From NCBI RefSeq assembly GCF_055900595.2, contig NZ_CM148325.1: a DNA stretch of 64,000 nucleotides; one strand, written 5' to 3'. The notes under the pieces are model-generated. The model was given only the letters and a program-made list of their open reading frames with translations. It ran no database searches and was not told where the DNA came from. Positions 1-54,507 of the stretch are shown in pieces. Positions within the stretch are counted from its first letter, which is position 1, and every line of letters begins with the position of its first letter. Position numbers and translations under genes: made by a program.

Positions 1-1
1 A

Positions 2-649
2 GTCCTCGGATTTTTTGGCCTGGTGGGGGCCGGGCGTTCCGATGTGATGAAGGCGCTATTTGGCCTCGTTTCGTATCACGGGACTGTGTTGATTGATGGT
101 AAGGAAGTCAGGATCGCTAATCCCAAACAGGCTATTGATCATGGCATTGCTTTTGTGACCGAAAACCGCAAGGAAGAAGGGTTAGTGCTGATGCACGACG
201 TCAATATGAACACGCACCATGTGGCGTTTCAATATAACGCTTCGCGGATGGGACTCATCAATCACCGACAAGAAGAGGCGAAGACGCTGCAATCTATTGC
301 CAGAATGAACACTAAAGTGAGTTCTGTACATCAGGCAGTGGGAGCGCTGAGCGGCGGTAATCAACAGAAAATCGTGTTATCCAAGTGGCTGGAGAAAACT
401 CCGCGTATTTTATTGCTCGATGAGCCAACGCGCGGAGTGGATGTCGGCGCAAAATTTGAAATCTATAACGTGATACGTCAACTGGCTGCGGCAGGGACAG
501 CAATTATTCTGGTGTCCTCTGAACTGCCAGAGGTCATGGCACTTAGCGATCGTCTGGTGGTAATGCGTAATAAAACGATTGCCGATATTTATTCATGTGA
601 AAATTTAACGCAGACACAGGTAATGACCGCTGCAACAGGAGTACGTTAA
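2..649 (+). CDS. Sugar ABC transporter ATP-binding protein, C-terminal (second) nucleotide-binding domain; 5' end lies upstream of the window
   Basis: The frame stays open back to position 2, giving ...GLVGAGRSD (Walker A-like). ABC signature LSGGNQQK and Walker B ILLLDEPTRGVD are present. Resembles the second domain of RbsA/MglA-type sugar ATPases. Confidence 0.8.
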   Translation, partial: VLGFFGLVGAGRSDVMKALFGLVSYHGTVLIDGKEVRIANPKQAIDHGIAFVTENRKEEGLVLMHDVNMNTHHVAFQYNASRMGLINHRQEEAKTLQSIARMNTKVSSVHQAVGALSGGNQQKIVLSKWLEKTPRILLLDEPTRGVDVGAKFEIYNVIRQLAAAGTAIILVSSELPEVMALSDRLVVMRNKTIADIYSCENLTQTQVMTAATGVR

Positions 650-1639
650 ATGACAGAGAAAACTCTTGCCAGTCCGAAACCTTCGGAAATTCCCATTGCA
701 AATAATTTTAAAAAAGTCTTCAGGCAATATGGCGGTATCCTCAGTGGAATGGTGGTGTTAATCATTCTGTTCAGTCTTATTAATGACAGTTTTTTTACTG
801 CCAATAACATTACTAATATTATTCTTCAGGTTTCGATAATTGCAATTACCGCCTATGGAATGACTTATGTACTTTTGCTTGGCGATATTGATTTATCAGT
901 CGGTTCAACCATTGCATTGATTGGCACATTTGCTGCGCTTGGGGCTTCATGGGGAATTCCATTTATTTTATTGGTCCCATTATCCATTATTGCAGCCCTG
1001 GCTCTGGGGATGATAAATGGTGGCTTGACGGCTATAGCGGGTATCCCTTCGTTTATTGTCACCGTTGCTACAATGGGGATCTTCCGTGGTATCGCTTATA
1101 TAGTGACCGATGGTATGCCCATCATGATTAAAGATGATGCCTTTCTGGCGCTGGGGAATGGAGAATTTCTCTATATACCTATTCCTATCTGGATATTAAT
1201 CATCTTATTGCTGATTAACCACTTCATTCTTACTAAAACAACCTTTGGACGAAAAATTTATATCACTGGTGGTAATAAAGAAGCGGCAGTTTATTCAGGG
1301 ATAAATGTCACCCGCTTGAAAATTAAAGTCTTTATGATTACTGCAGTGCTGGCAGGTATCAGCGGGATGATCCTCGCCTCACGCCTCTATTCCGGGCAAC
1401 CGAATTCCGCGTTGAGCTACGAACTGGATGCTATTGCCGCGGCTGTACTGGGAGGCACCAGCCTGAACGGCGGCTATGGAACGGTGGTGGGGACGGTAAT
1501 CGGGGCATTAACCATCGGCGTTATTAATAATGGCATGAACTTAATGAACGTTCCCTATTTCTATCAGATGGTGGTTAAAGGATTAGTCATTCTTGTAGCC
1601 GTTTATTTTGACGTAAGAAATAAAAGAAAACGTAGCTAA
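650..1639 (+). CDS. Sugar ABC transporter permease (RbsC-like, multi-pass membrane protein)
   Basis: 329-aa hydrophobic protein with multiple predicted transmembrane segments. Its ATG follows the upstream stop directly (TAA-ATG), with AGGAG about 10 nt upstream. The sequence is visibly AT-rich. Confidence 0.8.
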   Translation: MTEKTLASPKPSEIPIANNFKKVFRQYGGILSGMVVLIILFSLINDSFFTANNITNIILQVSIIAITAYGMTYVLLLGDIDLSVGSTIALIGTFAALGASWGIPFILLVPLSIIAALALGMINGGLTAIAGIPSFIVTVATMGIFRGIAYIVTDGMPIMIKDDAFLALGNGEFLYIPIPIWILIILLLINHFILTKTTFGRKIYITGGNKEAAVYSGINVTRLKIKVFMITAVLAGISGMILASRLYSGQPNSALSYELDAIAAAVLGGTSLNGGYGTVVGTVIGALTIGVINNGMNLMNVPYFYQMVVKGLVILVAVYFDVRNKRKRS

Positions 1640-1660
1640 TCATTTCAAGGAATTAATTAT

Positions 1661-2623
1661 ATGAGTAAGGTCTTCACAATTGGAGAAATTCTGGTTGAAA
1701 TTATGGCGAGTAAAATCGGCCAGCCATTTGATCAACCAGGTATCTGGAACGGCCCTTATCCCAGTGGTGCGCCCGCTATTTTTATCGACCAGGTGACACG
1801 TCTTGGTGTTCCGTGCGGCATCATTAGCTGTGTGGGGAATGATGGCTTTGGTGATATTAATATACATCGTCTGGCTGCTGATGGTGTGGATATCAGGGGG
1901 ATTTCAGTCTTACCTCTGGAAGCCACCGGGAGTGCCTTTGTTACTTATCATAACTCTGGCGATCGCGATTTTATTTTTAATATCAAGAATGCCGCTTGCG
2001 GTAAATTATCGGCGCAGCATGTTGATGAAAATATACTGAAAGACTGTACCCATTTTCATATTATGGGCTCATCCCTGTTTTCATTTCATATGGTAGACGC
2101 AGTAAAAAAAGCAGTAACCATCGTTAAAGCAAATGGTGGCGTTATTTCTTTCGACCCGAATATTCGTAAAGAGATGCTCGATATTCCAGAAATGCGTGAC
2201 GCCCTCCACTTTGTTCTTGAGTTAACAGATATCTATATGCCCAGCGAGGGAGAAGTGTTGCTCTTGTCGCCACACTCGACACCGGAGCGTGCAATCGCTG
2301 GTTTTCTTGAAGAAGGTGTTAAAGAGGTGATTGTGAAGCGCGGCAATCAAGGTGCCAGTTACTACTCCGCGAATGAGCAGTTTCATGTTGAGAGCTATCC
2401 GGTGGAAGAAGTTGACCCGACCGGTGCGGGAGACTGCTTTGGTGGCGCGTGGATTGCCTGCCGCCAGCTAGGGTTTGACGCCCATCGGGCATTACAATAT
2501 GCCAACGCCTGCGGTGCACTGGCGGTAACCCGACGTGGCCCAATGGAGGGAACGTCTCGCCTTGCGGAAATCGAAGCGTTCATCCAGCGCCATGACATGT
2601 CCATTCGGGAAGCAGCACAATGA
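1661..2623 (+). CDS. PfkB-family carbohydrate kinase (ribokinase/fructokinase/KdgK-like)
   Basis: 320 aa with an N-terminal FTIGEILVEI glycine-rich region and a C-terminal DPTGAGDCFGGAW anion-hole motif typical of PfkB kinases. A ribosome-binding site precedes the ATG. Confidence 0.8.
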   Translation: MSKVFTIGEILVEIMASKIGQPFDQPGIWNGPYPSGAPAIFIDQVTRLGVPCGIISCVGNDGFGDINIHRLAADGVDIRGISVLPLEATGSAFVTYHNSGDRDFIFNIKNAACGKLSAQHVDENILKDCTHFHIMGSSLFSFHMVDAVKKAVTIVKANGGVISFDPNIRKEMLDIPEMRDALHFVLELTDIYMPSEGEVLLLSPHSTPERAIAGFLEEGVKEVIVKRGNQGASYYSANEQFHVESYPVEEVDPTGAGDCFGGAWIACRQLGFDAHRALQYANACGALAVTRRGPMEGTSRLAEIEAFIQRHDMSIREAAQ

Positions 2624-3666
2624 AAAACGAAATTTGGTCGTGGATTGGCGATCTCTCGCAGGTTGCCGGAATTAAACACTATGAGTTACGCAGTGGCAGA
2701 TCAAAGGGGACAGAAGCGTTTGATGTCCGTACTGGTGCGGGATTGGCATTTACGGTGGTAAAAGATCGCGCGCTGGATATTGCATGGGCCAGCTACAAGG
2801 ACACTGCGCTCTCTTTTATCACCCCCAACGGCATTGTCGCCCCCGCTTTTTTTGAGTCTCAGGGCAACGGGTTTTTACGTAGCTTCTACGCGGGGTTACT
2901 GACTACCTGCGGACTTAGCTACATTGGCACGCCCTGTGAGGATAACGGAGAAACGCTGGGGTTACACGGGCGTTTGGCTGCGACTCCAGCAGAAGAGGTG
3001 GGGTATCGCACAGAACGGACCGACGACGGCATTGAATTTGTCATCAATGGCAAAGTACGGGAAACACGATTGTTCGGTGAAAATCTGACGCTGGAAAGGA
3101 CCATTCGCTGCCGTTATGGCGAAAATGTGCTGCGCATTGAAGACAAGGTGACTAATCATGGTTTCACCCGCCAGCCGCTGCAAATTCTTTATCACTTTAA
3201 TTACGGCTGGCCTTTATTATCGCCACAGGCAGAAATCTTGCTGTCGGCTAAAAGCGTAACGCCACGAACCCCGCATGCGGCGGAAGGGTTAACCAGTCAT
3301 CTGGAGATTTGTACCCCACAGCCCAGTTTTGACGAGCAGGTTTACTATCTCACGTTGAATAGCGACAGTCAGGGGATGAGTAAAGTTGCGCTGGTGAACG
3401 CCGAACTGGGGTGGGGAATTTACGAGAAATTCGACACCATGCAGCTACCCAACTTTATCCAGTGGAAAAATTTAGGCGCGGGTGAATATGTTATGGGGCT
3501 GGAGGTCAGCAATAGTTTTCCTGACGGTCGTGATAAAGAACGAGCGCAGGGGCGTCTGCCCTTTATAGAGCCAGGGGAAACAAAGACATACTGCTTTGAG
3601 CTGGGAATTGTTGATGGCGATGCTGAAATTAGCGCGTTGAAAGCGGAAATTGCAAGCTACCGTTAG
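2620..3666 (+). CDS. Aldose-1-epimerase-like (DUF4432-type) protein, function unknown
   Basis: 348-aa ORF whose start overlaps the kinase stop (ATGA), suggesting translational coupling. It is soluble-looking; family assignment is from overall resemblance only. Confidence 0.6.
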   Translation: MKNEIWSWIGDLSQVAGIKHYELRSGRSKGTEAFDVRTGAGLAFTVVKDRALDIAWASYKDTALSFITPNGIVAPAFFESQGNGFLRSFYAGLLTTCGLSYIGTPCEDNGETLGLHGRLAATPAEEVGYRTERTDDGIEFVINGKVRETRLFGENLTLERTIRCRYGENVLRIEDKVTNHGFTRQPLQILYHFNYGWPLLSPQAEILLSAKSVTPRTPHAAEGLTSHLEICTPQPSFDEQVYYLTLNSDSQGMSKVALVNAELGWGIYEKFDTMQLPNFIQWKNLGAGEYVMGLEVSNSFPDGRDKERAQGRLPFIEPGETKTYCFELGIVDGDAEISALKAEIASYR

Positions 3667-3681
3667 CTAACGGCAATAAAA

Positions 3682-3710
3682 ACGCCGGGCAGCGTTAACA
3701 GGCCCGGCGT
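3682..3710. terminator. Hairpin between the converging sugar operon (+) and accC (-); likely rho-independent terminator for accC
   Basis: Stem ACGCCGGGC / GCCCGGCGT with an 11-nt loop. An A-run on the + strand (T-run on the - strand) abuts the stem. Confidence 0.6.
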
Positions 3711-3757
3711 TGATTACGTTCTTTGCTAAGCGCGATGAAAACACCGCGCGTCACAAA

Positions 3758-5107
3758 TTATTTTTCCTGAAGACCGAGTTTTTTCTCCAGATAGTGGATG
3801 TTAGTGCCACCATGCTGGAAGTTCTCGTCATTCATGATGCGGATCTGCAGATCAACGTTGGTTTTGATACCGTCGATGATCAGCTCCTGCAGCGCATTCT
3901 TCATGCGGGCAATCGCCACGTCACGGTTTTCACCGTAGCAAATCAGCTTACCGATCATTGAGTCATAGTACGGCGGTACGGTGTAGCCCGCGTAGATATG
4001 AGACTCCCAACGCACGCCAAAACCGCCAGGTGCATGGAAACGGGTGATTTTGCCCGGGCTTGGCAGGAAGGTGTTAGGATCCTCGGCGTTAATACGGCAT
4101 TCCACCGCATGGCCGCGAACGTGAACTTCTTCTTGCTTGATCGACAGCGGCTGACCAGCAGCAATACGCAGTTGTTCTTTGATCAGGTCAACACCGGTGA
4201 TCATTTCAGTAACCGGGTGTTCTACCTGAATACGGGTGTTCATTTCGATGAAATAGAACTCGCCGTTTTCGAACAGAAACTCGAAAGTACCTGCACCGCG
4301 ATAGCCGATATCAACACACGCTTTAGCACAACGTTCACCGATGTAGCGACGCAGTTCCGGGGTAATGCCCGGTGCTGGCGCTTCTTCGACCACTTTCTGG
4401 TGACGACGCTGCATAGAGCAGTCACGTTCCGCCAGATAGATAGCGTTGCCCTGACCGTCCGCCAGTACCTGGATCTCGACGTGGCGAGGATTTTCCAGGT
4501 ATTTCTCCATGTAAACCATGTCGTTATTGAAAGCGGCTTTCGCTTCCGCACGGGTCATGGAGATGGATTGCGCCAGTTCAGCGTCGCCGCGTACTACACG
4601 CATACCACGACCGCCGCCGCCGCCGGAGGCTTTGATAATCACCGGGTAACCAATGCGTTTTGCAATGGCGCGGTTTTTATCCATATCGTCGCCCAGCGGG
4701 CCGTCAGAACCTGGTACGCAAGGAACGCCCGCTTTTTTCATCGCCGCGATTGCTGATACTTTATCGCCCATCAGGCGAATGGTTTCGGCTTTCGGGCCGA
4801 TGAAGATAAAGCCGGAGCGTTCAACCTGCTCGGCAAAATTGGCGTTCTCGGAGAGGAAGCCGTAACCCGGATGGATTGCTACTGCGCCGGTGATTTCAGC
4901 GGCGCTGATGATTGCCGGGATGTTCAGATAACTTTTTACTGACGGAGCAGGGCCGATACAGACCGTTTCGTCTGCCAGTAATACGTGTTTTAGATCGCGA
5001 TCCGCACTGGAGTGCACAGCGACAGTCTTGATGCCCAGTTCTTTACAGGCACGAAGAATACGCAATGCAATCTCGCCGCGGTTGGCAATAACAATTTTAT
5101 CCAGCAT
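3758..5107 (-). CDS. accC: Biotin carboxylase subunit of acetyl-CoA carboxylase
   Basis: Translation from [33 protein letters not shown]... gives 449 aa, matching E. coli AccC. The six-frame ORF extends 13 codons further upstream, which I treat as an artefact. Confidence 0.97.
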
Positions 5108-5117
5108 GTTCGCCTCG

Positions 5118-5588
5118 TTACTCGATGACGACCAGCGGCTCGTCAAATTCTACCGGTTGTCCACTTTCGACCAGAATTGCTTTCACGGTACCGGATTTGT
5201 CCGCTTCGATCTGGTTCATCATTTTCATGGCTTCAACGATGCACAGGGTATCGCCCACGTTGACTTTCTGACCCACTTCGATGAACGCTTTTGCGTCCGG
5301 GCTTGGGGTGCGGTAGAAAGTACCAACCATCGGGGAACGTACGATGTGACCACTGATTTCCGCTGCTGCTGGCGCTTCCATGGAAGGAACGGTCGCCGGA
5401 GCGGCTGCGTTAGATTGAGCTGGCTGCTGCATCATTGGTGCAGCGTAAGCTTGTTGCATCACAGGGAAACTTGCGGCAGGAGCTGCACGGCTGATGCGTA
5501 CTGACTCTTCGCCTTCGGAGATTTCCAGTTCGGAGATGCCTGATTCTTCAACCAGCTCGATCAGTTTTTTAATCTTACGAATATCCAT
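5118..5588 (-). CDS. accB: Biotin carboxyl carrier protein
   Basis: 156 aa starting [28 protein letters not shown]..., with the biotinylation motif [10 protein letters not shown]. It sits immediately upstream of accC. Confidence 0.97.
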
Positions 5589-6363
5589 GAGTGGGTTCCG
5601 TACTCTTTGTTTAGTGTGATTGTGACAGGCGTTTCACCGCCGTCTGTAAAGCGTATGCCCCGACAGCTGTATGCATAGCGATAAATTCCAGCAGGCCGGG
5701 ACGCCGGTCTATTTTGCCCCAGAGTGTCAATGTTTAGACTTGACGGACATTGTGCAGCGATCTGCTGCTATCCTCCGGCAAAAAACAAAATATACCTTCG
5801 TTGCGCCAATGTCACCTTTTCCGCAGCGCAAAAACTGCGTCAGGGAGGACGAGGTCGCACATTATAACGATTTCGTAGCAATTGGCAGCTAAATACTGGT
5901 CTTATCAGGGAAGATAATCAACAGCTAACATGTAAATAACCTTCAACACCGTGTAATTTGCAACAAGCCGCACAATTCACGAAATTAGCGCTATCGTCGA
6001 CGGAACTTCTTATAACGTAAGGCTAAAAGCTGTAAAGCCAGCTCTGCGAAGATGAGGGGCTGCAATGAGATGATCCTCACAGACCACAAATAATGTAGGG
6101 TTGCCAGGATCGCGACAAGATAGACGACATTACGCAGCGGTTGCTGGGGATTACTCAATTTTCACGGCATCGTCCGGATAGACGTCAATGCTAAAGCACG
6201 CAAAATCAACAAACTGACAATGCTCAGCATCAAATAGTTTTGAGTGGTTAATTTATAATCTAATAAAATCAGATTATTCACCCCTGGGATCAGAGTTAAG
6301 GTACAGATTAAGCGTAGCGTCACCCAGGCAAAGCGCCTTAAACCTAACAGACGACGGGACGTA

Positions 6364-6561
6364 TCAATAATGACTATTTAGTGGAGTATCAAGGGTGTTT
6401 TCCACCGTTTGGTGACCCGTATCAATGCGCATCAATTTATGGTCAGTCGAAATCATGACTTTCCAGTTTGGATTATGTTGTACAACTTTCTGACCAAGGT
6501 GTTCGACGAAAGCTGTCCGGCTAACCGCTTTTCCCGTTAATCGATGGAATAATGATTTCAA
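6364..6561 (-). CDS. Small hypothetical protein (65 aa)
   Basis: ORF with a GAGAGGG Shine-Dalgarno about 7 nt before the ATG, 36 bp downstream of acuI in AT-rich sequence. I do not recognise the protein. Confidence 0.35.
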   Translation of the reverse strand: MKSLFHRLTGKAVSRTAFVEHLGQKVVQHNPNWKVMISTDHKLMRIDTGHQTVENTLDTPLNSHY

Positions 6562-6597
6562 AATGAGTTCCCTCTCTTATTAATCCTTGCTAAATGG

Positions 6598-7572
6598 TTA
6601 ATTAATCTTCACCAGCGTGCGACCCTGGATCTGGTTATTAATGATGGCTTCGGCAAACTTTGGTGCTTCTGCCAGAGATATCTCTTTTGCTGCCTGGGTA
6701 TAGAATGATTCCGGTAAATCGGCGACCAGTCGCTGCCAGGCTTGTGCGCGGCGTGCTGGTGGCGTCATCACTGAATCCACCCCTTGTAAACGGACATTAC
6801 GCAGAATAAATGGCATGACCGTTGTTGGCAGAGTAAAACCACCCGCCAGACCACAAGCTGCCACGCAGCCTCCGTAATTCATTTGCGCCAGCACTTTCGC
6901 CAGCACTTTGTCGCCAACGGTGTCAATTGCCCCAGCCCAGAGTTGTTTTTCCAGAGGACGGGATTCGGCAAACTCATCGCGAGGGAGAATACGGCTGGCA
7001 CCTAAACTTTTCAGATATTCATGGGTACTTTCGCGACCGGAAACGGCAACGACCTGATAACCCAACTTATGCAGCAGCGCCACGGCGGTACTGCCGACGC
7101 CACCACTGGCACCCGTTACGACAATCTCGCCGTCCTGCGGGCGAACACCGGCATCTTCCAGCGCCATCACACACAGCATGGCGGTAAAACCGGCAGTACC
7201 GATAATCATTGCTTTACGCGCGTCCAGCCCTTGCGGCATGGCAACCAGCCAGTCACCTTTCACTCGCGCCTGCTCCGCCAGCCCACCCCAGTGGTTTTCA
7301 CCAACGCCCCAGCCAGTGAGTAATACGTCCTGACCGGCATGAAAACGCGGATCTTCGCTGGTGCGTACAGTTCCGGCAAAATCGATCCCAGGAATCATCG
7401 GAAAATTACGGATGATTTTTCCCTTACCGGTAATTGCCAGCGCATCTTTGTAGTTCAGGCTCGACCAGTGAACATCAACCGTGACATCGCCCTCCGGCAG
7501 GCGACTTTCGTCCAGAGTCTGTACCGATGCGAGAGTTTTGCCGTCCTGCTGTTCTAAAAGTAACGCCTGCAT
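6598..7572 (-). CDS. acuI: Acrylyl-CoA reductase AcuI (YhdH), MDR-family oxidoreductase
   Basis: 324 aa, MQALLLEQQDGKTLASVQTLDESRLPEGDV..., with a GASGGVG nucleotide-binding motif. Confidence 0.93.
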   Translation of the reverse strand: MQALLLEQQDGKTLASVQTLDESRLPEGDVTVDVHWSSLNYKDALAITGKGKIIRNFPMIPGIDFAGTVRTSEDPRFHAGQDVLLTGWGVGENHWGGLAEQARVKGDWLVAMPQGLDARKAMIIGTAGFTAMLCVMALEDAGVRPQDGEIVVTGASGGVGSTAVALLHKLGYQVVAVSGRESTHEYLKSLGASRILPRDEFAESRPLEKQLWAGAIDTVGDKVLAKVLAQMNYGGCVAACGLAGGFTLPTTVMPFILRNVRLQGVDSVMTPPARRAQAWQRLVADLPESFYTQAAKEISLAEAPKFAEAIINNQIQGRTLVKIN

Positions 7573-7723
7573 AAGTGGTCCTCATGTGCATGATGGATTG
7601 GAAAATAATTTCTGAAGACTATACTCGCTAATGGAAAAGCAAAGCCGATGAAGCGCAATAAATTGCGAGATAAATCTGATTTGCTAGTATGCCCGCTTCC
7701 TCACTATCGGAGTTAACACAAGG

Positions 7724-9664
7724 ATGAGATTAACGACGAAATTTTCGGCCTTTGTTACGCTGCTCACCGGGTTAACAATTTTTGTGACTTTGTTGGGCTG
7801 TTCGCTAAGTTTCTACAACGCCATTCAGTATAAGTTTAGTCATCGCGTTCAGGCGGTGGCGACGGCGATTGATACCCACCTTGTGTCGAATGACTTCAGC
7901 GCATTAAGGCCACAAATTACCGAATTAATGATGTCAGCAGATATCGTTCGTGTAGACCTGCTACATGGTGATAAACAGGTTTATACCCTCGCCAGAAATG
8001 GTAGTTATCGTCCGGTTGGCACCAGCGATCTGTTTCGCGAACTGAGCGTTCCGTTGATAAAGCATCCGGGGATGTCGCTGCGTCTGGTTTATCAGGATCC
8101 GATGGGCAACTATTTCCATTCGTTGATGACCACCGCGCCGCTCACGGGGGCGATTGGCTTTATCATTCTTATGCTCTTCCTGGCGGTACGCTGGTTACAA
8201 CGGCAACTTGCCGGGCAAGAATTGCTGGAAACCCGGGCTACTCGTATCTTAAACGGTGAGCGTGGCTCTAATGTGTTGGGAACCATCTATGAATGGCCGC
8301 CCAGAACCAGCAGTGCGCTGGATACGCTGCTTCGTGAAATTCAGAACGCACGCGAACAACACAGCCGTCTTGATACGCTGATCCGCTCTTATGCCGCCCA
8401 GGACATGAAAACCGGCCTCAATAACCGACTCTTCTTCGATAATCAGTTGGCAACGTTACTGGAAGATCAGGAGAAAGTAGGTACCCACGGGATCGTGATG
8501 ATGATTCGTCTACCGGATTTCAATATGTTGAGCGATACCTGGGGGCACAGCCAGGTTGAAGAACAGTTCTTCACTCTGACGAATCTGCTGTCGACATTTA
8601 TGATGCGCTACCCTGGCGCACTGCTGGCGCGTTACCACCGCAGTGATTTTGCTGCGCTGTTGCCGCACCGGACGTTAAAAGAGGCTGAGAGCATAGCCAG
8701 TCAGTTAATCAAAGCCGTCGATACCTTGCCGAACAATAAAATGCTCGATCGCGACGATATGATCCACATTGGTATCTGTGCCTGGCGTAGTGGTCAGGAT
8801 ACCGAGCAGGTAATGGAACATGCAGAGTCTGCCACGCGTAATGCGGGATTGCAGGGCGGCAATAGCTGGGCTATTTACGATGACTCGTTGCCTGAAAAAG
8901 GACGCGGTAATGTTCGCTGGCGTACGCTTATCGAGCAAATGCTCAGTCGCGGCGGCCCGCGCCTTTATCAAAAACCGGCGGTTACTCGCGAAGGTCAGGT
9001 TCATCATCGAGAACTCATGTGCCGCATCTTCGATGGTAATGAAGAGGTTAGCTCGGCGGAGTATATGCCGATGGTCTTGCAGTTTGGCTTATCGGAAGAG
9101 TATGACCGCCTGCAAATCAGCCGTCTGATTCCACTATTGCGTTACTGGCCGGAGGAAAATCTGGCGATTCAGGTTACCGTTGAGTCGCTGATTCGCCCGC
9201 GTTTTCAGCGTTGGCTGCGCGATACGTTAATGCAATGTGAAAGATCGCAACGAAAACGCATAATTATTGAACTTGCAGAGGCCGATGTAGGTCAACATAT
9301 CAGTCGTTTACAACCTGTTATTCGTTTAGTGAATGCTTTAGGGGTACGGGTAGCCGTCAACCAGGCTGGTTTGACGCTGGTAAGCACCAGTTGGATCAAA
9401 GAACTTAATGTTGAGTTACTCAAGCTCCATCCGGGGCTGGTCAGAAACATTGAGAAGCGAACGGAGAATCAGCTGCTGGTTCAAAGCCTGGTGGAAGCCT
9501 GCTCCGGGACCAGCACCCAGGTTTACGCCACCGGCGTGCGTTCGCGAAGCGAGTGGCAGACCCTGATTCAGCGCGGTGTTACAGGTGGGCAAGGGGATTT
9601 TTTCGCGTCCTCACAGCCACTTGATACTAACGTGAAAAAATATTCACAAAGATACTCGGTTTAA
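7724..9664 (+). CDS. csrD: CsrD, regulator of CsrB/CsrC sRNA decay (degenerate GGDEF-EAL protein)
   Basis: 646 aa with two N-terminal transmembrane segments. Length and position (divergent from acuI, upstream of mreB) match CsrD. Confidence 0.93.
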   Translation: MRLTTKFSAFVTLLTGLTIFVTLLGCSLSFYNAIQYKFSHRVQAVATAIDTHLVSNDFSALRPQITELMMSADIVRVDLLHGDKQVYTLARNGSYRPVGTSDLFRELSVPLIKHPGMSLRLVYQDPMGNYFHSLMTTAPLTGAIGFIILMLFLAVRWLQRQLAGQELLETRATRILNGERGSNVLGTIYEWPPRTSSALDTLLREIQNAREQHSRLDTLIRSYAAQDMKTGLNNRLFFDNQLATLLEDQEKVGTHGIVMMIRLPDFNMLSDTWGHSQVEEQFFTLTNLLSTFMMRYPGALLARYHRSDFAALLPHRTLKEAESIASQLIKAVDTLPNNKMLDRDDMIHIGICAWRSGQDTEQVMEHAESATRNAGLQGGNSWAIYDDSLPEKGRGNVRWRTLIEQMLSRGGPRLYQKPAVTREGQVHHRELMCRIFDGNEEVSSAEYMPMVLQFGLSEEYDRLQISRLIPLLRYWPEENLAIQVTVESLIRPRFQRWLRDTLMQCERSQRKRIIIELAEADVGQHISRLQPVIRLVNALGVRVAVNQAGLTLVSTSWIKELNVELLKLHPGLVRNIEKRTENQLLVQSLVEACSGTSTQVYATGVRSRSEWQTLIQRGVTGGQGDFFASSQPLDTNVKKYSQRYSV

Positions 9665-9842
9665 CCTGCCGTTTAATCCGTTTTCACGTAGAATAACGCG
9701 CGCTGCGTCTCATGGGAGTGTGCTTGTCTGCTCGCCAGATTGTTGCAGCACATATGCAGATGAATGACCTTACGCGGTTGCAAACAGGCGAGGAATGCTG
9801 CTGATGCATTAAGCCTTTCTGGACTCAGGCAGAGATTTGTAA

Positions 9843-11012
<1,170 letters not shown>

Positions 11013-11077
11013 TCGGATACAGGCAGGGGAAGCGTCTGTTTACCCTGCCTGGTCTGATACGAGAATACGCATAACTT

Positions 11078-12669
<1,592 letters not shown>

Positions 12670-36284: not shown

Positions 36285-37076
36285 ATGGGCCTTATGAACG
36301 CATTTGATTCGCAAACCGAAGATTCTTCACCTGCAATTGGTCGCAACTTGCGTAGCCGCCCGCTGGCGCGTAAGAAACTCTCCGAAATGGTGGAAGAAGA
36401 GCTGGAACAGATGATCCGCCGCCGTGAATTTGGCGAAGGTGAACAATTACCGTCTGAACGCGAACTGATGGCGTTCTTTAACGTCGGGCGTCCTTCTGTG
36501 CGCGAAGCGCTGGCAGCGTTAAAACGCAAAGGTCTGGTGCAAATAAACAACGGCGAACGTGCCCGCGTCTCGCGTCCTTCAGCGGACACCATCATCGGCG
36601 AGCTTTCCGGCATGGCGAAAGATTTCCTTTCTCATCCTGGCGGAATTGCCCATTTCGAACAATTACGTCTGTTCTTTGAATCCAGCCTGGTGCGCTATGC
36701 GGCTGAACACGCCACCGATGAGCAAATCGATTTGCTGGCAAAAGCACTGGAAATCAACAGTCAGTCGCTTGATAACAACGCGGCATTCATTCGTTCAGAC
36801 GTTGATTTCCACCGCGTGCTGGCGGAGATCCCCGGTAACCCAATCTTCATGGCGATCCATGTTGCCCTGCTCGATTGGCTGATCGCCGCGCGCCCAACGG
36901 TAGCTGATCAGGCTCTGCATGAGCATAACAACGTTAGCTATCAACAGCATATTGCGATCGTTGACGCGATCCGTCGTCATGATCCTGACGAAGCCGATCG
37001 CGCGTTGCAATCGCATCTCAACAGCGTCTCTGCTACCTGGCACGCCTTCGGTCAGACCACCAACAAAAAGAAATAA
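36285..37076 (+). CDS. nanR: Sialic acid regulon repressor NanR (GntR/FadR family)
   Basis: 263 aa with an N-terminal GntR helix-turn-helix. It lies immediately upstream of the nan operator and nanA. Confidence 0.93.
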
Positions 37077-37185: not shown

Positions 37186-37230
37186 CTGATGAATCCCCTA
37201 ATGATTTTGGTAAAAATCATTAAGTTAAGG

Positions 37231-37300
37231 TGGATACACATCTTGTCATATGATCAAATGGTTTCGCCAAAAATCAATAATCAGACAACAAAATGTGCGA
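37231..37300 (-). ncRNA. IS10 antisense RNA-OUT (from pOUT); position inferred from the canonical IS10 map
   Basis: In canonical IS10, pOUT fires outward from about element position 115 and RNA-OUT ends near position 46. These are mapped onto the window by offset; no independent signal was checked. A dam GATC site at the pIN -10 region (CATATGATCAAATGG) is present. Confidence 0.45.
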
Positions 37301-38501
37301 ACTCGATATTTTACACGACTCTCTTTACCAATTCTGCCCCGAATTACACTTAAAACGACTCAACAGCTTAACGTTGGCTTGCCACGCCTTACTTGACTGT
37401 AAAACTCTCACTCTTACCGAACTTGGCCGTAACCTGCCAACCAAAGCGAGAACAAAACATAACATCAAACGAATCGACCGATTGTTAGGTAATCGTCACC
37501 TCCACAAAGAGCGACTCGCTGTATACCGTTGGCATGCTAGCTTTATCTGTTCGGGCAATACGATGCCCATTGTACTTGTTGACTGGTCTGATATCCGTGA
37601 GCAAAAACGGCTTATGGTATTGCGAGCTTCAGTCGCACTACACGGTCGTTCTGTTACTCTTTATGAGAAAGCGTTCCCGCTTTCAGAGCAATGTTCAAAG
37701 AAAGCTCATGACCAATTTCTAGCCGACCTTGCGAGCATTCTACCGAGTAACACCACACCGCTCATTGTCAGTGATGCTGGCTTTAAAGTGCCATGGTATA
37801 AATCCGTTGAGAAGCTGGGTTGGTACTGGTTAAGTCGAGTAAGAGGAAAAGTACAATATGCAGACCTAGGAGCGGAAAACTGGAAACCTATCAGCAACTT
37901 ACATGATATGTCATCTAGTCACTCAAAGACTTTAGGCTATAAGAGGCTGACTAAAAGCAATCCAATCTCATGCCAAATTCTATTGTATAAATCTCGCTCT
38001 AAAGGCCGAAAAAATCAGCGCTCGACACGGACTCATTGTCACCACCCGTCACCTAAAATCTACTCAGCGTCGGCAAAGGAGCCATGGATTCTAGCAACTA
38101 ACTTACCTGTTGAAATTCGAACACCCAAACAACTTGTTAATATCTATTCGAAGCGAATGCAGATTGAAGAAACCTTCCGAGACTTGAAAAGTCCTGCCTA
38201 CGGACTAGGCCTACGCCATAGCCGAACGAGCAGCTCAGAGCGTTTTGATATCATGCTGCTAATCGCCCTGATGCTTCAACTAACATGTTGGCTTGCGGGC
38301 GTTCATGCTCAGAAACAAGGTTGGGACAAGCACTTCCAGGCTAACACAGTCAGAAATCGAAACGTACTCTCAACAGTTCGCTTAGGCATGGAAGTTTTGC
38401 GGCATTCTGGCTACACAATAACAAGGGAAGACTCACTCGTGGCTGCAACCCTGCTTACTCAAAATCTATTCACACATGGTTACGTTTTGGGGAAATTATG
38501 A
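37293..38501 (+). CDS. IS10 transposase
   Basis: 402 aa, [151 protein letters not shown]..., recognised as the IS10/Tn10 transposase. Full length with no frameshift. Confidence 0.97.
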
Positions 38502-38514
38502 GGGGATCTCTCAG

Positions 38515-54395: not shown

Positions 54396-54507
54396 CCCCG
54401 GCTAGACCGGGGTGCGCGAATACTGCGCCAACACCAGGGAAATCTTGGCTGCGCCGTAAATTTTTATGATGAGTTACAAGGGCACAGCACTTTTTTTCAG
54501 GCCGCAC
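54386..54507 (-). ncRNA. arcZ: sRNA ArcZ (RyhA/SraH), convergent with and overlapping the arcB 3' end
   Basis: The minus strand reads GTGCGGCCTGAAAAAAAGTGCTGTGCCCTTGTAACTCATCAT...GGCGCAGTATTCGCGCACCCCGGTCTAGCCGGGGTCATTTTTTT, matching the ArcZ sequence and its terminator as I recall them. Confidence 0.85.

Follow-up and report, generated by a model that had tools for sequence, protein, structure and literature searches.

The first 3,757 nucleotides of the DNA analyzed here most probably (roughly 0.93) hold the 3' part of tagB together with tagC, tagD, and tagE, the promoter-distal part of the Escherichia coli D-tagatose island. The window, meaning the whole stretch of 64,000 nucleotides under analysis, comes from contig NZ_CM148325.1. 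Judged by sequence, the locus is already known: it is the published "tag" island of E. coli Nissle 1917 (EcN), an eight-gene, 8.5-kb D-tagatose island lying between accC and yhdT (Ha et al. 2022, PMC9720028), the regulation of which has been analyzed in EcN (Park et al. 2025, PMC12226905). A preliminary description of the window had proposed that the genes import and phosphorylate a specific but unidentified sugar. The import and phosphorylation of a specific sugar stand; the sugar itself has a name, D-tagatose, by virtue of the work on the same accC/yhdT site (PMC9720028). Because the window genes are those of the published island, the original observation is real but already explained, and amounts to a correct rediscovery of a characterized locus. 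A literature search for DUF4432, or for the island under another name, returned only the two tag papers and one genome paper, which enters the island as "GR 23 accC..yhdT".

The tag genes and their setting

Four tightly packed tag genes run along the + strand toward accC and accB, which face them on the - strand. ORF coordinates and profile matches agree with the preliminary description regarding the four reading frames, their families, their strand, their convergence on accC, and their TAA-ATG and ATGA junctions. The first gene, tagB (1..649, +), is cut by the window start, where its ORF is open in frame 2; what remains is the last 215 codons and the stop of a 499-aa gene, which in the near-identical genome NZ_CP098223.1 is complete at 1500 nt (11150-12649 of the extracted locus). 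This part encodes the second nucleotide-binding domain of a CUT2-type sugar ABC transporter ATPase, with XylG, AraG, and RbsA as its best NCBIfam matches (profile positions about 284-503). tagC (650..1639, +), joined to tagB by a TAAATG junction at 647-652, encodes a 329-aa RbsC/AraH-like ABC permease, assigned from NCBIfam and from identity to EcN. It scores 282.6 bits against AraH and 278.6 bits against the ribose ABC permease PRK09512, both below the equivalog cut-offs. These ATPase and permease matches, along with that of the kinase below, bear out the earlier call of a CUT2-type importer paired with a sugar kinase. Citrobacter farmeri orthologs of the importer, 87-92% identical, are recorded with Pfam domains PF00005 (twice), PF02653, and PF13407, the CUT2 makeup of a fused two-domain ATPase, a BPD_transp_2-type permease, and a Peripla_BP_4-type binding protein.

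The third gene, tagD (1661..2623, +), specifies a 320-aa D-tagatose kinase of the PfkB family. Its match to NCBIfam NF049991, "tagatose kinase" (414.2 bits, E=2.6e-124), is the best of any family, the next reaching 143 bits, yet it falls 6 bits short of the curated equivalog cut-off of 420 bits. The kinase function rests instead on a deletion phenotype: an in-frame deletion of EcN tagD (ECOLIN_RS18675) eliminates growth on D-tagatose (PMC9720028). tagE (2620..3666, +), the last gene of the operon, overlaps tagD through ATGA at 2620-2623 and encodes a 348-aa DUF4432 protein with a galactose-mutarotase-like fold, as judged from Pfam and predicted structure.

Between the tagE and accC stops lies a 91-bp island-specific spacer containing a 10-bp perfect inverted repeat, AACGCCGGGC ... 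GCCCGGCGTT (3681..3711). Its folding energy is -22.5 kcal/mol on the + strand and -24.2 kcal/mol on the - strand, and a terminator scan places a - strand site at 3696-3681, with a T-run next on that strand. The repeat is probably the terminator of the convergent accBC transcript, and possibly it also terminates tagYABCDE. accC (3758..5107, -), the biotin carboxylase gene, is a core gene flanking the island, assigned by K-12 alignment and by the annotation of near-identical genomes; accB follows at 5118..5588 (-) in the ORF list. Alignment with the empty K-12 site puts the right-hand island junction at 3757/3758, directly after the accC stop. An Rfam scan of 1-3757 returned no RNA families. In 1-6700, a promoter scan called 14 sites where 9.9 +/- 3.5 would be expected; the count is uninformative and agrees with the published absence of an internal transcription start (PMC12226905).

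In K-12, a 108-bp spacer separates accC from yhdT-panF-prmA, the order that had been given earlier; compared with K-12, this stretch of the window is therefore an insertion. The upstream half of the island, comprising tagY, tagA, tagR, tagK, and the promoter, lies beyond the window and was read from NZ_CP098223.1, a complete genome with 3 mismatches to window positions 1-5600. There, tagK and tagR, followed by tagY, tagA, and tagB, precede the position of the window start, and all eight genes are annotated as intact. We infer that the source strain likewise carries tagY, tagA, tagR, tagK, and the promoter upstream, and the earlier supposition that a binding protein and a regulator lie there accords with the presence of tagA and tagR in NZ_CP098223.1. 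What had been taken for a four-gene operon is, in that genome, part of tagYABCDE, an operon of six genes, beside which tagR and tagK form a divergent pair. Nor does the cluster replace yhdT-panF, as had been thought: the island, about 8.5-8.7 kb long, takes the place of the 108-bp spacer, and yhdT-panF-prmA is retained intact beyond it, displaced by 8.7 kb, with yhdT at the left junction. A blast identity of 99.3% to NZ_CP098223.1 over 1-6388 raised the suspicion of a recombination breakpoint where the island meets accC. The suspicion was rejected because only those 3 mismatches fall in 1-5600; the differences lie in the accB-acuI pseudogene spacer.

The match to the EcN locus extends to every dimension compared. 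The NZ_CP098223.1 locus reproduces the published 8.5 kb, the 341-bp divergent spacer, and the 284-aa aldolase, and the kinase genes, at 963 bp and 936 bp, have the published lengths (PMC9720028). The EcN locus (ECOLIN_RS18670-18705 = HW372_RS02435-02470 in the order tagK-tagR / tagY-tagA-tagB-tagC-tagD-tagE; NZ_CP058217) shares site, gene order, gene lengths, overlaps, and junctions with the window. Amino acid identities for TagB, TagC, TagD, and TagE are 99.5, 99.1, 99.4, and 96.9%, TagE being the most diverged of the four. The two copies differ only by allelic divergence of about 2-2.6% at the nucleotide level, similar to that of the flanking core genes. It is very improbable that the source strain carries a decaying, nonfunctional remnant. 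Some strains do have pseudogenized tag members (PMC9720028), and an IS4-family element lies under the cluster match in one complete genome, but the window ORFs are full length, equal to those of EcN in length, and 96.9-99.5% identical to them in amino acid sequence, and in the near-identical NZ_CP098223.1 the annotation shows eight intact genes.

The D-tagatose pathway and the DUF4432 protein TagE

In EcN, D-tagatose induces tagYABCDE from >40-fold to >1000-fold (PMC9720028, PMC12226905), and TagR is the tagatose-responsive repressor of the operon, transcription of which starts at a single site upstream of tagY, with no start inside the cluster (PMC12226905). For growth on D-tagatose the operon is both necessary and sufficient; neither TagD nor host PfkA can be dispensed with, and cloning the operon into K-12, B, and W strains lets them grow on the sugar (PMC9720028). 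On these results and the protein families, the published pathway begins with uptake of free D-tagatose through the CUT2 importer TagB (ATPase)/TagC (permease) and its periplasmic binding protein, TagA. TagD then phosphorylates O6 to give tagatose-6-P, host PfkA adds the 1-phosphate to give tagatose-1,6-bisphosphate, and the class II aldolase TagY cleaves the latter into DHAP and glyceraldehyde-3-P. Consistent with these assignments, TagY passes tagatose-bisphosphate aldolase family models and TagR is of DeoR type, with AgaR as its best NCBIfam match. A second kinase, TagK, is paralogous to TagD and scores 343.4 bits against NF049991. Given intact ORFs and 97-99.5% protein identity, the source strain would be expected to grow on D-tagatose.

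Since D-tagatose seldom occurs in nature, the cluster may act physiologically on a broader range of sugars. A more radical proposal is that it evolved for a different sugar altogether, for instance another rare ketohexose, or a sugar released from mucin or diet, with D-tagatose merely accepted in the laboratory. The transporter components lie below every substrate-specific NCBIfam cut-off, TagD lies slightly below the tagatose kinase cut-off, and both TagE and TagK, the latter lacking an assigned role, are left unexplained. We nonetheless consider this proposal improbable: D-tagatose induces the operon >1000-fold via TagR, growth on this sugar, which tag-carrying EcN consumes to completion, both requires the cluster and is conferred by it (PMC9720028, PMC12226905), and the dedicated tagatose-bisphosphate aldolase TagY exceeds its family cut-offs.

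TagE can be assigned a candidate function. TagE matches Pfam DUF4432 at E=5.1e-104, and an NCBIfam search yields no family. A PDB profile search reached PDB 3ty1, a "hypothetical aldose 1-epimerase" (E=1.3e-32), and got no further. The AlphaFold model (pLDDT 93.6) aligns structurally with 3ty1 at a TMq of 0.90 and with GalM structures at 0.6-0.67 (Foldseek probability 1.00). Residues H116, H192, and E295 are invariant in 39 homologs with identity down to 43%; they resemble mutarotase catalytic residues in motif only, since aligning the TagE profile to the E. coli GalM sequence (hhalign) gave a probability of 0.1, with no significant alignment and no residue-level mapping. Distant DUF4432 homologs adjoin PfkB/FGGY sugar kinases, class II aldolases, polyol dehydrogenases, and CUT2 importers, and DUF4432 genes beside sugar kinases and aldolases recur in Firmicutes and Proteobacteria. 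The notion is that TagE, a mutarotase-fold enzyme, interconverts sugar ring forms for the TagD kinase. The pyranose form of a ketohexose has O6 as its ring oxygen, which leaves a 6-kinase only the minor furanose or open-chain form to act on. TagE could thus play a role for TagD comparable to that of RbsD for ribokinase. If true, ring-form isomerization would be the first function for DUF4432.

Base composition, distribution, and residence of the island

Of 5426 complete E. coli genomes, 1421 (26%) contain the island, and in 4004 the site is empty, as in K-12. These are the only two states of the accC/yhdT site in all but one of the 5426. At least 80% of 1-3757 is covered in 1420 of the 1421 matching genomes. 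With this distribution, and its absence from K-12, the island is accessory, as had been proposed. The window carries a minority allele, identical at >=99% in 10 of the 1421 records; IAI39 and CE10 come next at 98.9%. The island was found in about 93% of genomes from phylogroup B2 and 73% of those from F (PMC9720028), making it a lineage marker. Such strains, among them ExPEC, AIEC, and Nissle 1917, a probiotic, gain a carbon source of their own, one that is also sold as a sweetener, and the island is relevant to gut colonization and to tagatose-inducible expression tools.

The permease and kinase genes are indeed more AT-rich than the core, as the preliminary description held: GC is 41.9% for tagC and 48.5% for tagD versus 52.8% for accC, GC3 is 42.7 and 45.5 versus 57.3, and positions 1-3757 have 47.4% GC versus 51.6% for the remaining window. 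Composition alone is a weak signal, because tagE (50.7%) is not AT-rich and equal or greater AT richness recurs in 15 of the 226 segments of the same size taken from the rest of the 64 kb. A recently acquired horizontal insert, or mobile genomic island, has been proposed for this locus (PMC9720028), and horizontal acquisition was proposed again from the window. Such a recent history appeals to composition (island GC 46.1% versus 49-52% in the flanks, GC3 40-50% versus 53-65%) and to a patchy spread concentrated in B2 and F. We regard recent acquisition as unlikely, albeit less so than the alternatives weighed above. In NZ_CP098223.1, no integrase, transposase, or tRNA is annotated at the island, and a search of its ends for direct or inverted repeats, integrase, and tRNA found just short, chance-level repeats. 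The two-state site likewise speaks against recent insertion, as does comparison with the EcN copy, in which island identity (97.4-98.9% nt) parallels that of accC and accB (96.9-98.9%). Moreover, the complete island occupies the same accC/yhdT site in C. farmeri and in a Superficieibacter-like contig, and its third-codon-position identity to E. coli in these other genera, 45-55%, falls among the values for panF, acuI, csrD, and mreC (42-59%).

Occupancy of the same site in other genera, combined with flank-like divergence, argues for old residence over recent transfer. These data would fit either long residence followed by loss or an ancient transfer in which homologous recombination used the conserved flanks. 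Two readings would extend the published picture: TagE would be a dedicated ketohexose ring isomerase (a pyranase or mutarotase) that gives the 6-kinase furanose D-tagatose, and the island would be an old Enterobacteriaceae resident of the accC/yhdT site, since lost from most E. coli lineages. We offer both tentatively, at clearly less than even odds.

Relationship to known sugar systems

Sinorhizobium meliloti and Agrobacterium tumefaciens possess a TagABC importer, a TagD kinase, and a tagatose-6-P epimerase (PMC9720028). Analogous to the E. coli island, the rhizobial pathway uses a CUT2 ABC importer and a PfkB tagatose kinase to arrive at tagatose-6-P. There, however, tagatose-6-P is epimerized to fructose-6-P, whereas the E. 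coli island is without such an epimerase (PMC9720028). The DUF4432 mutarotase-fold gene occupies the corresponding position in the E. coli island, which relies on PfkA and its own aldolase, TagY.

The lower pathway, from tagatose-6-P via tagatose-1,6-bisphosphate to DHAP and G3P, is shared with the K-12 gat and aga/kba systems. TagY is about 64% identical to GatY (PMC9720028), and the tag repressor is DeoR-type with AgaR as the best NCBIfam match. Uptake differs: gat and aga/kba couple PTS transport to phosphorylation, whereas the tag island imports the free sugar through an ABC transporter and phosphorylates it with a separate kinase. In addition, the gat and aga/kba aldolases work with GatZ/KbaZ partners, whereas the tag island encodes no Z-type subunit.

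Finally, the rbsDACBK operon offers a functional analogy only: it, too, pairs a CUT2 importer with a PfkB kinase, and its small accessory enzyme, the pyranase RbsD, converts sugar ring forms for ribokinase, the role proposed here for TagE. The fold of RbsD is unrelated to the galactose-mutarotase fold of TagE.

Four genes of a D-tagatose island beside accC

The first 3,757 nucleotides of the window carry four plus-strand ORFs that converge on minus-strand accC (3758-5107) and accB (5118-5588). The first ORF, the 3' part of tagB, runs off the window start, ends at 649, and specifies the second nucleotide-binding domain of a CUT2-type sugar ABC ATPase. It is followed by tagC (650-1639, 329 aa), encoding an AraH/RbsC-like permease, tagD (1661-2623, 320 aa), encoding a PfkB kinase, and tagE (2620-3666, 348 aa), encoding a DUF4432 protein (Pfam, E=5e-104). 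NCBIfam and Pfam matches bear out all four family assignments of the preliminary description, and the tight junctions it listed are precisely right, with TAAATG at 647-652 and ATGA at 2620-2623. A perfect 10-bp inverted repeat (3681-3711) occupies the 91-bp island-specific spacer that separates tagE from accC. The repeat is a probable terminator of the convergent accBC transcript, and perhaps also of the tag transcript; K-12 has a different hairpin at this place.

The system is already known: it is the D-tagatose island of E. coli Nissle 1917 (EcN). The preliminary description proposed import and phosphorylation of a sugar it could not name, which stands in substance, and the sugar, D-tagatose, had been published (PMC9720028). 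Specifically, by comparing EcN with K-12, Ha et al. (2022) defined an 8.5-kb, eight-gene accC/yhdT region of the same organization, with two operons 341 bp apart, kinase genes of 963 bp and 936 bp, and a 284-aa aldolase (PMC9720028). D-tagatose induces the six-gene operon from >40-fold to >1000-fold, deletion of that operon abolishes growth on D-tagatose, and K-12, B, and W strains given the cloned operon gain such growth (PMC9720028). Loss of just the 963-bp kinase gene, by in-frame deletion, yields a Tag- phenotype, and growth requires host pfkA, not pfkB (PMC9720028). The names tagK, tagR, tagY, tagA, tagB, tagC, tagD, and tagE come from Park et al. (2025), who placed one transcription start 64 nt upstream of tagY and another upstream of tagR, detected none within the cluster, and showed TagR to behave as a tagatose-responsive repressor under catabolite repression (PMC12226905).

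Direct comparison of the window genes with the EcN locus (NZ_CP058217) gives protein identities of 99.5% for the C-terminal half of TagB, 99.1% for TagC, 99.4% for TagD, and 96.9% for TagE. Gene lengths are identical. At the nucleotide level, these genes are 97.4-98.9% identical to EcN, compared with 96.9% for accC and 98.9% for accB, so the island has diverged from EcN as much as its core neighbors have. The top family for TagD, by a wide margin, is the NCBIfam tagatose kinase NF049991 (414.2 bits; runner-up family, 143 bits). The curated cut-off is 420 bits, and a shortfall of 6 bits may be why RefSeq labels an experimentally supported tagatose kinase merely "sugar kinase."

From the intact ORFs and their near-identity to EcN, we infer the same pathway in the window's strain. 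As shown for the EcN orthologues, the TagA/TagB/TagC ABC system would import D-tagatose as the free sugar, TagD would produce tagatose-6-P, PfkA would convert it to tagatose-1,6-bisphosphate, and TagY would split the latter into DHAP and G3P. When tagatose is absent, TagR would repress the operon. The second PfkB kinase gene, tagK, lies upstream of the window start (7170-8105 in the corresponding locus of the near-identical genome NZ_CP098223.1) and is transcribed together with tagR. TagK scores 343 bits against the tagatose-kinase model; it shares 51% identity with TagD and is dispensable for function of the cloned six-gene operon (PMC9720028). TagK might phosphorylate tagatose-6-P or be a kinase that forms an inducer.

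Site and origin of the island

A megablast search with 1-3757 located the segment in 1421 of 5426 complete E. coli genomes, in single copy and at 95-100% identity; the genes are annotated in every case as sugar ABC ATPase, permease, sugar kinase, and a member of the aldose 1-epimerase family. One of the 1422 matching places is on a plasmid. In NZ_CP048107.1 (559947-565039), the match is in two pieces, with an IS4-like ISVsa5-family transposase annotated beneath, and one genome matched only over 2570-3757, at the query's tagE end. The window allele is a minority type: 10 of the 1421 records reach at least 99% identity, followed by IAI39 and CE10 at 98.9%.

In the closest match, NZ_CP098223.1 (3 mismatches within window 1-5600), the order is prmA-panF-yhdT, a sugar kinase and a DeoR regulator (both minus strand), a 341-bp spacer, six plus-strand genes (tagatose-bisphosphate class II aldolase, binding protein, ATPase, permease, kinase, and DUF4432), and accC-accB. 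The insert spans 8.7 kb and eight genes, and the window start therefore falls within the fifth of them. The expectation that yhdT-panF should follow accC is correct for K-12, but yhdT-panF-prmA is displaced rather than lost. The accC-yhdT spacer of K-12 MG1655 is 108 bp and lacks the island; aligned with both island junctions, the common sequence ends at the accC stop codon and beside the yhdT start codon. The site has two states only, the K-12-type empty junction (4004 genomes) and the island (1421), accounting for 5425 of the 5426 genomes.

Horizontal acquisition had been suggested from AT-richness, an argument also made from low GC in the 2022 paper (PMC9720028). The composition itself is confirmed for the permease (41.9% GC) and the kinase (48.5% GC), with GC3 of 43-46%, but not for tagE, which at 50.7% GC is not AT-rich; accC has 52.8% GC and 57% GC3. 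The island has 46.1% GC versus 49-52% in its flanks; of 226 windows of equal size taken from the rest of the 64 kb, 15 match or exceed 1-3757 in AT content. A recent event is opposed by several observations. Annotation and a repeat search of the ends found no integrase, transposase, tRNA, or terminal repeats in the island, and the site is the same in two other genera. Specifically, Citrobacter farmeri (2551-11047 of its extracted locus) and a contig carrying a protein that NCBI assigns to Superficieibacter electus (2554-11047) hold the complete eight-gene island between prmA-panF-yhdT and accC-accB. Their island proteins are 79-93% identical to those of E. coli, and all three genera share a low island GC3. 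At third codon positions, island genes are 45-55% identical to E. coli, similar to the neighboring panF, acuI, csrD, and mreC at 42-59%, and the highly expressed accC, accB, and mreB reach 65-83%; with third positions near saturation, these values are only suggestive of origin. Together, the evidence suggests that the island is an old allele of this locus that has undergone losses, not a recent transfer; it fits either long residence with repeated loss or old homologous recombination via the conserved flanks.

Other features of the window

The accB-acuI (yhdH) spacer (5589-6597, ~1 kb, AT-rich) corresponds to the yrdF/yrdE pseudogene remnant of K-12, which the EcN annotation calls a YedZ/MsrQ-like pseudogene, and contains what is left of msrP/msrQ-like genes. 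C. farmeri and the Superficieibacter-like contig carry intact Oxidored_molyb and Ferric_reduct (MsrP/MsrQ-like) genes at this position. The window's spacer includes a 33-bp segment missing from K-12 and EcN, and most of the window's differences from NZ_CP098223.1 gather in this spacer.

A 1329-bp IS10-type (IS4-family) element (37186-38514) lies in the interval from nanR (36285-37076) to nanA, 21 bp ahead of the nanA start codon (ATG, 38536). It carries a 402-aa transposase ORF (37293-38501, plus strand), an Rfam RNA-OUT match (37231-37300, minus strand, 97.3 bits), and a 9-bp target duplication, AGCATCACT. The insertion cuts nanATEK off from its promoter and should alter expression of the sialic-acid operon. 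The junction occurs in 0 of the 5426 complete genomes of E. coli, and NZ_CP098223.1 lacks the element. Full-length ArcZ sRNA (54400-54507, minus strand; Rfam RF00081, 118.7 bits) is an ordinary core feature, in a part of the window where the NZ_CP098223.1 annotation places arcB.

A candidate role for TagE

Our literature search found no characterization of tagE after the tag papers and no paper characterizing DUF4432. The sole solved relative of TagE by sequence is 3ty1, a Klebsiella structural-genomics "hypothetical aldose 1-epimerase" (E=1.3e-32; with a profile, 1.3e-56). A confident AlphaFold model built with 39 homologues (pLDDT 93.6) matches 3ty1 with TMq 0.90, and matches bona fide galactose mutarotases and a hexose-6-P mutarotase with TMq ~0.6 and Foldseek probability 1.00. 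H116, H192, and E295 are invariant in homologues down to 43% identity and recall the mutarotase His/His/Glu, but profile-sequence comparison with E. coli GalM produced no alignment, so they are only its candidate counterpart. Distant homologues adjoin PfkB or FGGY sugar kinases, class II aldolases, polyol dehydrogenases, and CUT2 importers.

In a ketohexopyranose, the ring oxygen is O6, so a 6-kinase requires the minor furanose or open-chain form. Our notion is that TagE interconverts ring forms, and could thereby supply the furanose or open-chain form to the 6-kinase. Alternatively, TagE may act as an anomerase on tagatose-6-P, serving PfkA. Ring-form supply to the 6-kinase would have a parallel in RbsD, which likewise supplies a sugar form to ribokinase.
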